Shown here: piece by piece, positions 11,527 through 22,032 of the stretch
Layout of the letters: each line of letters starts with the position of its first letter
Position numbering within the stretch: position 1 is the stretch's first letter
Assembly (NCBI GenBank): GCA_038850285.1
Contig: JAWCMA010000002.1
Span: 43,773 to 67,772, forward strand
DNA: 24,000 bases
From: Methanocellales archaeon
Lineage (GTDB): Archaea > Halobacteriota > JAWCLZ01
Direction of reading: 5' to 3'
The notes under the pieces: model-generated
What the model saw: only the letters and a program-made list of their open reading frames with translations
Database searches by the model: none
Told to the model about the DNA's origin: nothing
Made by a program: the position numbers and the translations under genes

Positions 11527-11859
11527 TTAGCCGTACATTCCTTTTGAAGTATCAGACACTTCTTTAGCTATTCCCTTCTTCAAAGCCTCTTCAAGTTCCT
11601 TGATATGCGAGATCATCCATTCAGCAATGCTCTTGAACTGCGCCGGTGACATGCGAATGTCTATTATCAATTCGCGATTGATCTTCTGAAGCTTCATAGA
11701 TCCAGCTGGATCTTCGAGCATCTCAGGTACAAGTCGATCAACATAGAAAATCATTCTTCCCTCATCTGGGCTTAATCCACCGAAGACGCCATTTATATAT
11801 ATTACCTTATATTCGGGACTCTGGGACAGCTCAAATTTTACCTTCTGCAATAAAATCAC
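11527..11859 (-). CDS. Small conserved hypothetical protein (DUF3467-like)
   Basis: Y.NG..GG......FY and a C-terminal I.MSP.QFK....W helix resemble the DUF3467-like pattern. The start may be TTG 11850 after GGTGA. It lies 22 bp downstream of the AOR-family gene. Confidence 0.6.
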   Translation of the reverse strand: MILLQKVKFELSQSPEYKVIYINGVFGGLSPDEGRMIFYVDRLVPEMLEDPAGSMKLQKINRELIIDIRMSPAQFKSIAEWMISHIKELEEALKKGIAKEVSDTSKGMYG

Positions 11860-14032: not shown

Positions 14033-14054
14033 ATGAACTTATCAATTCACTTTA

Positions 14055-14094
14055 AAAATATAAAAATTGCTTTTGTAGGCAAAAATTTAGATAG
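14055..14094. promoter_or_regulatory. Back-to-back putative TATA boxes for the ferredoxin-AOR and ArsA-like operons
   Basis: Minus-strand TTTTTATATT lies about 25-30 nt above ATG 14032; plus-strand GCAAAAA-TTTAGATA lies about 25-30 nt above GTG 14118. Confidence 0.4.
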
Positions 14095-14117: not shown

Positions 14118-15332
14118 GTGAATATCCCAAGAGTAATACTCTATACCGGTAAAGGTGGCACTGGGAAGTCTGTCATAGCCAGTGCCACTGCTCTTAAGAC
14201 TGCGAGCTTGGGATATAGAACTATCATAGTATCCTCGGATCCCGCTCATACACTTATGGATGCTTTTGAGAAGAGAATAAGTGATTCTCTAACCGAGATT
14301 TGCGAAAACTTGTGGGCGATTCAAATAGATTCTATTAAAGAGATGCAGAAGAACTACGCAGTTATTCAAGAATATCTAGCTTCCGTGCTTTCCGCTAAGG
14401 GAATAGAGGAAACCCTAACCTATGAAATAGCCACAATGCCGGGGATGATTCATGTTTTTGCCCTTCTCAAAATCGAGGAACTATTAAGAGAGCAGCAGTT
14501 TGAGGTATTAATTCTCGATACAGTCGCAGCTGGCGAAGCCCTTAGATATATACATTTCCCTAAACTCTTTGGAAGCATAAGCAGAAAGCTAATGAGCATC
14601 GCAGGCTCGGTAGCTAGTGCAGCAAGAGTTATACAGCCACTCATAGGACTGCCTGCTCCAAGAAAAGAGGTATTCCAATCTGAGGTGGAGTTCATAAAGA
14701 GGCTTGAAAAACTGGGGGATATTCTTAAAGATCCGAACATCACGAGTTTAAGGCTTGTGGTCAATCCTGATTCCTTCAGCATTGAAAATACTCGAAGAGC
14801 TCTGCTGCTTTCAAACCTATATGGAATAAATGTAGATCTAGCTATAATCAACAAAATCTTGCCAGAAGGAGTAAGCGATCCATTCTTTAAAAAATGGATT
14901 GAGCTTCAGAAGAAATATATAGCTGAAGCTGAATCAAGCTTTTATCCACTGCCCATTAAAAAGGTAATGCTCTTCGATTCAGAGCTAAAGGGCATCGCTC
15001 GCCTTAAAAAATGTGGAGATGAGTTATTCCAGAGTGAAAATCCCGCTATAGTTTACTTCAAGGGCTCTCCATTCAAAACCATTACCAAGGATAAAGAGCT
15101 TGTTTTGATGGTCAAAGTTCCCTATGTAAGTAGAGAGATGATAAGCGATATTGAAAGAATCGGAGATGAACTCTTGGTTAAGATAAGCACCGAAGTTGGA
15201 GATATAATGCGAATCATACCACTTCCAACAGCCGCGCTTCGAATGAAACTCTCAAGAGCTAAGCTTTTAAGCGATGAACTTCATATTACCTTTACTGATG
15301 ATTATGAGCGAGAGGGAGAGCAGCGCTATTGA
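14118..15332 (+). CDS. Single-domain ArsA/Get3-family ATPase with C-terminal alpha-crystallin (HSP20)-like domain
   Basis: Deviant Walker A GKGGTGKS, switch I SSDPAHTL.D, altered switch II DTVAAGEALRY, INK. C-terminal ~75 aa with GDEL.VKI, R.IPLP and AKL..DEL.ITF. Confidence 0.85.
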   Translation: MNIPRVILYTGKGGTGKSVIASATALKTASLGYRTIIVSSDPAHTLMDAFEKRISDSLTEICENLWAIQIDSIKEMQKNYAVIQEYLASVLSAKGIEETLTYEIATMPGMIHVFALLKIEELLREQQFEVLILDTVAAGEALRYIHFPKLFGSISRKLMSIAGSVASAARVIQPLIGLPAPRKEVFQSEVEFIKRLEKLGDILKDPNITSLRLVVNPDSFSIENTRRALLLSNLYGINVDLAIINKILPEGVSDPFFKKWIELQKKYIAEAESSFYPLPIKKVMLFDSELKGIARLKKCGDELFQSENPAIVYFKGSPFKTITKDKELVLMVKVPYVSREMISDIERIGDELLVKISTEVGDIMRIIPLPTAALRMKLSRAKLLSDELHITFTDDYEREGEQRY

Positions 15333-15579
15333 GGATATCACAAGGGGTGTGGCGAAGTTAATGGCACTGCCCTTTTCTGAGACATTTGACCAAGTTCTCA
15401 TTGAGAGTTTGCCCAAGAAATATGCTCAAACTGCGGAGCATCTTATAAATGCAAGAATTGAGTTTTTAAGTGCGCTGAAGAGCTTGTTGGACTTGAAAAT
15501 AGAGAGACTTAAGGAAGTTAGAGAGAAAATCAAAGAAAAAGCAGAGGTTGGGAAAAAGGAAAAGGTACAAGTTGAGTAA
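15304..15579 (+). CDS. Small helical/coiled-coil hypothetical protein overlapping the ATPase stop
   Basis: Amphipathic EHLINARIEFLSALKSLLDLKIERL and a charged tail ending KKEKVQVE. ATG 15304 is preferred to 15274; 29-bp overlap with the ATPase gene. Confidence 0.72.
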   Translation: MSERESSAIEDITRGVAKLMALPFSETFDQVLIESLPKKYAQTAEHLINARIEFLSALKSLLDLKIERLKEVREKIKEKAEVGKKEKVQVE

Positions 15580-21417: not shown

Positions 21418-22032
21418 ATGCCAGTTGATTATCTCCTTGCCTTCGCAGTGCTTTTCACTCTTGCTTGCATTCTCTGGGCAATCTCAAGCTATAGCTTGAG
21501 GAGAGCCAAGCGCAATACCATTTCCCATCTCAAAAAATTTGCCGAGCACATTAATGCATCGCATAGCTATAGCTTTTTTCTGGATTACGATAAAGCAAAG
21601 GGAGAGCATCGCAACCATAGCTTTGAATATAAGTTCTTTGAACGCCGAGGAGCTTGGCTCAGTTTAACTATATTGCTGAAGGAAACCCTTGATTTTTATA
21701 TTAGAATTGCAAGGAAATCGCTGAGGGAGTCCATAATTAAGGGAAGGAAAATAGATCTAGAAAGAGGAGATTTGCTACCTTTCCTTGAAAACACGCTTGT
21801 GATCAAAACCAGCGATTCAAAATTGGCTAAAGCACTGCTTGATTCAAGCACGCAGGCAATTGTGCTTCGCTTATTTGAGGATTTTAAAATCGCTAAAATG
21901 GAGATAAATCAAGGAGTGCTGAGGATTGATATAAGCGATCCCGAGATTGCAGGGGAGAAGTACTTTAGCACGCTGCTTGATATAGCAATTGACTTTGCAG
22001 AGCAAGCTGAGAAAAGAGTTGGCTTAGGCTAA
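21418..22032 (+). CDS. Hypothetical protein with a single N-terminal transmembrane helix
   Basis: Hydrophobic LLAFAVLFTLACILWAI followed by the basic RRAKR; starts 8 bp after gltX; no family recognised with confidence. Confidence 0.65.
   Translation: MPVDYLLAFAVLFTLACILWAISSYSLRRAKRNTISHLKKFAEHINASHSYSFFLDYDKAKGEHRNHSFEYKFFERRGAWLSLTILLKETLDFYIRIARKSLRESIIKGRKIDLERGDLLPFLENTLVIKTSDSKLAKALLDSSTQAIVLRLFEDFKIAKMEINQGVLRIDISDPEIAGEKYFSTLLDIAIDFAEQAEKRVGLG

Follow-up and report, generated by a model that had tools for sequence, protein, structure and literature searches.

What does an ATPase of the Get3/ArsA fold do when it ends in an alpha-crystallin domain (aCD), and does the short open reading frame (ORF) overlapping its 3' end belong to it? 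These questions are raised by a locus in a 24,000-nucleotide stretch of contig JAWCMA010000002.1 of a Methanocellales archaeon, called the window below. A sequence-only reading had proposed the ATPase and a 91-aa helical protein as a candidate two-gene module. We conclude that the two genes very probably form a functional module, and that a conserved two-gene chaperone or targeting module is the best explanation of the locus.

The small ORF is a real gene of the AF_1253 family. A database protein, P0002, is identical to its product (91 aa, 100% identity and coverage) and carries a precomputed match to PF27253.1, as do all 120 relatives listed. An alternative ATG upstream, at 15274, would give 101 aa; because P0002 begins at the ATG at 15304, the latter was taken as the start. 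The start site of P0002 thus bore out the 91-aa length and the 29-bp overlap of the ORF, and the overlap suggests that translation of the two genes may be coupled. The ESM Atlas names PF27253 'Uncharacterized protein AF_1253 family'. No functional assignment was found for AF_1253 or PF27253, and a literature search by the family name gave nothing related. A full scan of 1.84 billion cluster representatives returned 994 family members at E ≤ 0.001, and all 150 family members among the matches listed were 48-166 aa long. No fused form appeared among the longer proteins searched with the small-protein profile, which counts as weak evidence. One 469-aa protein, P0123, was considered as a fusion and rejected; the additional residues lie at the N-terminus and seem to stem from an upstream start.

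Pairing of the two genes within the phylum was surveyed in 401 genomes with a profile of the small protein and a profile of the ATPase. The small-protein profile matched in 66 of the 401 genomes: 3/3 of family f1 together with the window's own genome, 59/64 of f4, 1/54 of f10, and two others. The ATPase profile gave at least 90 matches reaching the end of the aCD, in at least 85 genomes, among the 150 matches listed. Both genes were present in 58 genomes. In 49 of these, the small gene lay directly downstream of the ATPase gene on the same strand, and the gaps between the profile matches ranged from -14 to +124 nt, with one at +226 nt. The nine unpaired genomes consisted of five of genus g15 and four fragmented assemblies. 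The ATPase without the small gene was seen in 27 genomes, mostly of family f10. Behind the ATPase in four of the five f10 loci inspected, there was a divergent ORF of about 100 aa ending in KEKVKVE; therefore, the profile is blind there and the gene is not absent.

Two f10 loci (L057 and L058) carry two tandem aCD-ATPase genes, in L057 a small ORF comes after the downstream copy, and in L058 there is none. In-frame stops flagged in the ATPase matches of several genomes were considered as recoding, and this was rejected: they come from alignments that ran a few codons past the true stop, into the part shared with the small gene.

The pairing was also found across phyla. We used the best 80 loci, from about ten phyla, of a genome-contig scan in which 518 of 600 pattern matches were confirmed. 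The loci came from Chloroflexota, Dormibacterota, Actinomycetota, Bacillota, Spirochaetota, Planctomycetota, Acidobacteriota, Chlorobiota, Poribacteria, Nitrososphaerota, Thermoplasmatota and Archaeoglobaceae. A partner was counted when a family member, detected with the profile iterated twice, ended 60-700 nt past the ATPase stop. Such a partner was found in 45 of the 80 loci, and no family match was found elsewhere in those loci. It was present in Dormibacterota (7/7 loci), Planctomycetota (2/2), Methanobacteriota (3/3), Actinomycetota (12/16), Chloroflexota (11/19) and Bacillota (2/9), and was detected in none of the loci of Chlorobiota (0/6) and Nitrososphaerota (0/3). Loci of Brevibacillus and Cohnella carry the pair. 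On the ATPase tree described below, the partner occurs in both deep subclades, and its distribution needs at least 17 changes. Conservation of the small gene beside homologous ATPases, on which the proposal of a module depended, was therefore confirmed within and across phyla. Clustering of the flanking ORFs of 97 loci found no third conserved gene; the next clusters were an antisense artefact (11 loci) and a MarR-like regulator (8 loci).

The MarR-like gene lies just upstream of the aCD-ATPase gene in seven Bacillota loci (L071 and others) and one Spirochaetota locus, which hints at stress-responsive control in Bacillota. Separately, the partners in L079, L108, L113, L114, L118, L124, L128, L132, L135 and L139 have an N-terminal C-x4-C-P-x-C motif before the conserved helix, which may bind metal. 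These loci are labelled Actinomycetota or Planctomycetota, and L132 is from an unclassified bacterium.

The most conserved element of the small protein is its C-terminal tail, with the family consensus K-[IV]-x-[IV]-[ED]. Among 120 close relatives, 119 end in [IVL]-x-[IVL]-x and 119 have Lys at -5; positions -4 and -2 hold I or V, and 98 have Glu or Asp at -1. A further motif, [KRE][IVL]x[IVL][PS], is N-terminal and present in 86 of the same 120. The tail motif was found in 43 of the 45 cross-phylum adjacent partners, even where the rest of the protein had diverged, versus 113 of 4180 control ORFs of 50-200 aa from the same loci (2.7%). It was also found in 119 of 146 distant representatives, and some of the 18 tail-less ones look truncated. 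A downstream ORF with the tail motif and without a profile match was seen in 14 further loci, which were excluded from the counts.

The AF2 model of the small protein alone, built with 86 relatives, has helices at residues 3-24, 26-35 and 38-87. The long helix is amphipathic and is followed by a Lys/Glu-rich linker and a free C-terminal tail. The per-residue confidence (pLDDT) is 86-93 in the conserved helix core and below 50 in the last five residues. In the alignment of 86 sequences, H46, A50 and K87 are invariant, and P23, P37, E53, L55, A57, S60 and D63 are at least 90% conserved. The small protein thus has an [IV]-x-[IV] in a flexible terminal extension, as in IXI-type motifs. C-terminal IXI motifs of small heat shock proteins (sHSPs) bind the beta4/beta8 groove of a neighbouring aCD, and the co-chaperone BAG3 binds sHSPs through IPV motifs. 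The tail of the small protein is like these motifs in its [IV]-x-[IV] at -4 to -2 of a flexible C-terminus. Unlike them, it stands on a separate small helical protein encoded beside an aCD-bearing ATPase, and docking is only proposed. The main stand-alone sHSP of the host genome ends in ...RTIPVK, whose IPV motif also occupies positions -4 to -2.

A C-terminal extension of 25-28 aa was observed on partner-less ATPases of Chlorobiota (4/6) and Caldilineae (L126, L133, L141, L146; L072, L096, L103). In Chlorobiota its first residues are I-P-V, I-K-V or V-P-V, and an amphipathic helix follows. The extension may correspond to the tail of the partner, here as part of the ATPase chain.

The ATPase gene starts with GTG and its frame has 404 codons. 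The coordinates of the features are listed in the table below.

Table. Features of the ATPase gene, the small gene and the upstream region (positions in the window; residues of the respective protein)
Feature	Position	Strand	Basis
A/T-rich TATA-like stretch, candidate promoter element, in the 85-bp divergent intergenic region	14051..14066		sequence
Gene of the 404-aa single-domain Get3/ArsA-fold ATPase with C-terminal aCD	14118..15332	+	ORF, Pfam PF02374 and PF17886
ATPase domain, residues 5-303	14130..15026	+	Pfam ArsA_ATPase, E 5.4e-72
Deviant Walker A P-loop GKGGTGKS, residues 11-18	14148..14171	+	relatives' alignment
Switch I SSDPAHT with conserved Asp, residues 39-45	14232..14252	+	relatives' alignment
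PGMIH at the family's PG.(D/E)E site, residues 108-112	14439..14453	+	row counts
Switch II DTVAAGEALR, residues 134-143	14517..14546	+	row counts
aCD, residues 319-394, seven beta strands	15072..15299	+	AF2 model, Pfam ArsA_HSP20
Gene of the 91-aa AF_1253-family (PF27253) helical protein	15304..15579	+	identical protein P0002 carries PF27253.1
Overlap of ATPase gene end and small gene start, 29 bp	15304..15332	+	sequence
Conserved long-helix core H46 to D63, HLINARIEFLSALKSLLD	15439..15492	+	alignment of 86 sequences
C-terminal tail K-V-Q-V-E, residues 87-91, IXI-type motif at -4 to -2	15562..15576	+	sequence and relatives

The Pfam scan and the translation, which contains two Cys and no CxxC, agreed with the earlier description of a single ATPase domain without CxxC. 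The protein scored 216.9 bits with TIGR00345, the NCBIfam TRC40/GET3/ArsA subfamily model (cut-off 135), and belongs to that subfamily. The proposed HSP20-like C-terminus was supported in three ways: by the PF17886 (ArsA_HSP20) match at residues 325-392 (27.9 bits, cut-off 22.5), by the seven strands of the AF2 model (319-324, 327-333, 342-348, 351-358, 361-368, 376-384 and 387-394), and by full-length Foldseek alignments to Get3d structures. The model was built with 76 relatives and has a pLDDT of 83.4 and a pTM of 0.83. Residues of about 141-204, equivalent to the client-binding helices of Get3, are helical in the model with low confidence (pLDDT 51-67 over 150-180). The aCD terminates shortly after its last strand and has no IXI-type tail of its own.

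Among the 76 relatives, G11, K12, G13, G14, G16 and K17 of the P-loop and S39, D41 and H44 of switch I are invariant; the switch I motif is also present in canonical Get3-like sequences. Because the P-loop and the switch I Asp are intact, the ATPase is expected to be active. In the host genome (1.28 Mb, 93% complete), no second full-length family member was found; the four further matches to PF02374 lie in frames of 260-268 aa, and none covers more than 133 profile positions.

The position of the ATPase in its family was analyzed with a tree of the ATPase domain only, from which the aCD columns were excluded, by a quick IQ-TREE search. The 120 rows comprised 101 aCD-bearing sequences (the window's phylum and the 80 loci), 15 single-domain sequences without aCD and four tandem ArsA-like halves; six fragmentary or split matches and duplicate loci were excluded. 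Chlorobiota and Chloroflexota stood in for the published Get3d clade, and the cyanobacterial and plant Get3d proteins were not in the tree. All 101 aCD rows fell on one side of a branch with an SH-aLRT support of 99, apart from the Get3-like and ArsA-like rows. The phylogeny suggested in the sequence-only reading thus placed the protein with the aCD-bearing ATPases and not with the tandem ArsA-like rows. The window's genus grouped with Nitrososphaeraceae (97) inside an archaeal subclade of 14 rows (99), and the other 81 rows were Archaeoglobaceae-labelled and bacterial, including Chlorobiota and Chloroflexota.

In the one other genus of the window's family, the aCD-ATPase of L012 (G003:C1) grouped in this tree with Aminicenantes and Spirochaetota (98) and not with the window's genus, and its partner has a CPLC motif. 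Because of this grouping, the module appears to have moved horizontally between bacteria and archaea. L160 and L161 (G394 and G264; family f4) have a second, very divergent aCD-ATPase paralogue with a branch length of 1.66, distant from the first copy.

The motifs followed the same division. At the switch II His position, the aCD rows have Glu in 77, Asp in 8 and His in none of 101, whereas His is present in 10 of the 15 rows without aCD and in all four tandem halves. A CxxC after residue 200 was found in 0/101 aCD rows, 11/15 rows without aCD and 4/4 tandem halves. The earlier note of a change of switch II to DTVAAGE was correct as to the letters. However, since the position holds Glu or Asp in 85 of the 101 aCD rows and His in none, the Glu is a trait of the whole clade, and only 'VAA' is specific to the genus; DTVAAGE is present in 3/101 aCD-clade rows only. 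The deviation at PGMIH, noted at the same time, is real and also confined to the window's genus: position 112 is Glu in 87/101 aCD-clade rows and His in 2/101, and position 111 is Asp or Glu in 87/101 and Ile in 1/101. The 'VAA' of switch II and PGMIH are therefore peculiar to this genus.

By sequence and fold, the closest solved ATPase domains are those of archaeal Get3 (Methanothermobacter thermautotrophicus 3zq6 and Methanocaldococcus jannaschii 3ug6), which ranked first in Foldseek with E of about 1e-23 and about 305 aligned columns; in the PDB sequence search, archaeal Get3 was matched at 9.5e-42. The archaeal Get3 proteins share with the window ATPase the deviant P-loop and the switch I Asp. 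Unlike it, they lack an aCD, have the switch II His and the CXXC, and lie on the opposite side of the branch with 99% support. The window ATPase thus has the aCD of the Get3d/aCD clade and neither the CXXC nor the switch II His of canonical Get3.

Barlow et al. (2023; PMC10248533) take the aCD and the lack of a CXXC as the defining features of Get3d. The Get3d proteins of Arabidopsis (At1g26090, 8elf) and Nostoc (All4481; 3igf and 8egk) have the same architecture as the window ATPase, one ATPase domain and a C-terminal aCD without CXXC, and in Foldseek only these three structures aligned across the aCD, with 394-425 columns. Their sequence similarity to it is weak (E 1.9e-9 and 6.4e-8 in the PDB search), and the cyanobacterial Get3d equivalog model NF050088 scored 73.8 against a cut-off of 325. 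The catalytic motifs of the window ATPase are intact, whereas the Arabidopsis and Nostoc proteins have a degenerate switch I and no A-loop (PMC10248533). The same paper reports that green sulfur and nonsulfur Get3d keep conserved switch loops, and counts as Get3d the Chlorobiota and Chloroflexota ATPases with which the window ATPase grouped. The solved Get3d proteins, from a cyanobacterium and a plant, are not orthologs of the window ATPase. By its aCD and its lack of a CXXC, however, the window ATPase belongs to the aCD-bearing clade, which is Get3d broadly defined, and it is of the 'green sulfur and nonsulfur' type, whose switch loops are conserved.

The window locus further differs from the known Get3d in its hot-spring archaeal, non-phototroph host and its dedicated small partner gene. 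The five sequencing runs listed for the locus are all of DNA, four from hot springs and one from sediment, and none of RNA was among them. The main text of PMC10248533 mentions no partner gene for Get3d, and among the Get3d papers listed none has a title or abstract that describes a prokaryotic partner. In the only paper found that is devoted to it, the Get3d family was tied to the rise of photosynthesis, and the role of its aCD, which lacks the usual oligomerisation features, was called unclear (PMC10248533). The sequence-only reading had likewise noted that the type is described mainly from photosynthetic organisms. It is so described in that paper, but the architecture is common in non-phototrophic archaea and bacteria. 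A word-indexed protein search gave 1175 relatives at E ≤ 1e-20 among 8000 scored candidates, and PF02374 and PF17886 were both present in 115 of 120 among the matches listed. Source labels of aCD-ATPases included Nitrososphaerales, Nitrosocaldaceae, Thermoprotei, Geothermarchaeales, Nezhaarchaeota, Methanophagales, Archaeoglobaceae, Bacillota, Actinomycetota and Dormibacterota. No link to photosynthetic organisms emerged from the relatives' labels, and photosynthesis genes were not searched for in the host genome. The usual database names of the relatives are 'ArsA family ATPase' and 'arsenite-transporting ATPase'.

How the two proteins might work together can be proposed by analogy. Like Get3 and Get3d, the ATPase would act as an ATP-driven dimer holding hydrophobic client segments, and the small protein would be its dedicated binding partner, either an adaptor or a regulator. 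Its tail might add a strand to the aCD at the beta4/beta8 groove, in the manner of the IXI motifs of sHSPs and the IPV motifs of BAG3, and the conserved helix would then be free for contact with the ATPase dimer or a third component. We infer the binding of the small protein to the ATPase, its site and its effect on the ATPase cycle. Prediction of a complex of two ATPase copies and the small protein, using separate alignments, gave scores of 0.01 and 0.02 against a mark of 0.32, which counts neither for nor against binding. The assignment of the small protein as an adaptor or regulator whose C-terminal tail docks on the aCD of the ATPase is tentative, and we give it somewhat less than an even chance. 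A broader form of the idea is rather doubtful: the AF_1253 family would be a widespread, hitherto unrecognised class of prokaryotic co-chaperones that supply an IXI-type tail in trans to aCDs. Together with the aCD-bearing ATPase it would make up the ancestral two-component form of the Get3d machine, older than photosynthesis and independent of it, and phototrophs would have lost the partner or put a tail on the ATPase in its place.

Several results weigh against a dedicated partnership through the tail. Docking of the tail leaves the invariant or near-invariant polar helix residues H46, E53, S60 and D63 unexplained, and the solved structures of Get3d show the aCD packed against the dimer interface (PMC10248533). 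In the cross-phylum set, 35 of the 80 loci had no detectable partner, including every Chlorobiota locus, and the window's nearest outside relatives, the Nitrososphaeraceae, had none in three loci. In the five g15 genomes the two genes are both present and unlinked; the small gene lies between an MptD-like gene and surE, in a conserved lipid-synthesis and surE/rpiA context (L041, L052, L054 and L055), and the ATPase gene is at another site, ahead of an aminotransferase gene. What speaks most against a strictly dedicated partnership is genus g56. The small gene was present without a listed ATPase in eight genomes, six of which belong to this genus, and no aCD-ATPase was found in 5/5 g56 genomes checked, which have two stand-alone sHSPs of 139-180 aa. 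The small gene of g56 (L048-L051) has a pyruvate-carboxylase-B-like gene on one side and GNAT-like and ornithine-carbamoyltransferase-like genes on the other, and the latter two also follow the ATPase/small-gene pair in a sister genus. Persistence of the small gene in g56 fits equally well with a broader role as an aCD ligand.

Besides tail docking, the small protein could regulate the ATPase cycle with its conserved helix bound to the nucleotide-binding dimer, the tail serving another purpose. Comparable regulators are Get4 or the cytosolic helices of Get1/Get2 on Get3, and MinE and ParB for deviant-Walker-A ATPases. Such a role is consistent with a small gene tightly coupled downstream of a deviant Walker A ATPase and with the strongest internal conservation, which lies in the amphipathic helix (H46 and A50 invariant, E53, S60 and D63 near-invariant). 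The aCD of Get3d occupies the Get4 site and may act in regulation (PMC10248533). However, the most conserved part is the terminal pentapeptide and not the helix, which a cycle regulator leaves unexplained, and the small gene persists in the g56 genomes without an aCD-ATPase. We regard this role as unlikely.

It is also quite unlikely that the small protein serves aCDs in general, including those of stand-alone sHSPs, or something unrelated, the adjacency reflecting shared regulation. The retention of the small gene and its neighbours in g56 after apparent loss of the ATPase, alongside two stand-alone sHSPs, argues for it, as do the move of the g15 small gene to the side of surE and the many changes in partner presence on the tree. 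On the other hand, the 80 cross-phylum loci have no family match anywhere but directly behind the ATPase gene, the adjacency is seen in both deep ATPase subclades, and the genes often overlap or are a few nt apart.

The helix of the small protein had been suggested as the client or the adaptor of the ATPase. The helix is indeed conserved and an adaptor remains compatible with it, but the part of the claim that concerned a client, with its helix held in a hydrophobic groove or chamber for delivery to a membrane or granule, fared poorly and is in our view improbable. Get3d has a hydrophobic chamber and binds tail-anchored proteins in vitro (PMC10248533), and the helix is amphipathic. However, the maximum 19-residue Kyte-Doolittle value of the small protein is 0.92, without a hydrophobic or transmembrane-like segment, and its 91 residues include 17 K+R and 17 D+E. 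The lack of a transmembrane segment means that it is no tail-anchored client. Moreover, the conserved helix positions carry polar residues, and a tail anchor would not have the charged and conserved extreme C-terminus seen here.

Arsenic resistance had been excluded from the sequence alone, and the ATPase is almost certainly not an arsenite pump. ArsA carries metalloid-binding cysteines. The E. coli R773 protein (1f48) shares the fold and the P-loop family with the window ATPase (E 5.2e-22), but has two fused halves and ars operon partners, which, like those cysteines, are absent here. An ArsA-type arsenite/antimonite pump ATPase is suggested by the database names of the relatives and by ArsB-family permease matches, found on contigs C30 and C1 only and unlinked to the ATPase; it retains next to no probability, given a single domain with only two Cys and no CxxC, ArsA equivalog scores far below cut-off (TIGR04291, 91.4 vs 650; NF041417, 113 vs 800), no ars gene in the 24-kb window by Pfam scans, no acr3 or ArsD match in the 93%-complete host genome, no adjacent ars gene at the window locus or in 97 related loci, and a place on the tree outside the clade of the tandem ArsA-like rows.

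Get3d-type ATPases have solved structures and no defined role, and the window locus makes the question of their aCD testable. Archaea and bacteria that are not phototrophs commonly have the aCD-ATPase architecture with its catalytic motifs intact, and the ATPase is usually paired with a small partner whose most conserved feature resembles an aCD ligand. Many 'arsenite-transporting ATPase' annotations would need correcting as well. The namesake lineage of AF_1253, which is genus g56 by gene order and source names, has no adjacent ATPase, and this may explain why the pairing went unnoticed.

The divergent neighbour of the ATPase gene is a pair of genes for AOR and a 4Fe-4S ferredoxin, and the convergent neighbours encode TIM and FBP aldolase/phosphatase. 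A link to the divergent AOR operon had been considered possible. It was rejected and is unsupported, because the ferredoxin/AOR neighbour is shared only within the same genus and the 97 loci have no third conserved gene. Two further ORFs were noted in the window. The 204-aa ORF after the GluRS gene, 21418-22032 (+), matched no Pfam family at E ≤ 1e-4, and the 110-aa ORF directly downstream of the AOR gene, 11527-11859 (-), has a weak match to DUF3467, below the cut-off (19.3 vs 25 bits). The gene content of the window comprises primase, PCNA, F420 biosynthesis, Pelota-like, AOR, ferredoxin, TIM, FBP aldolase/phosphatase, HAM1, Bud32-like kinase, GluRS and LarA genes.

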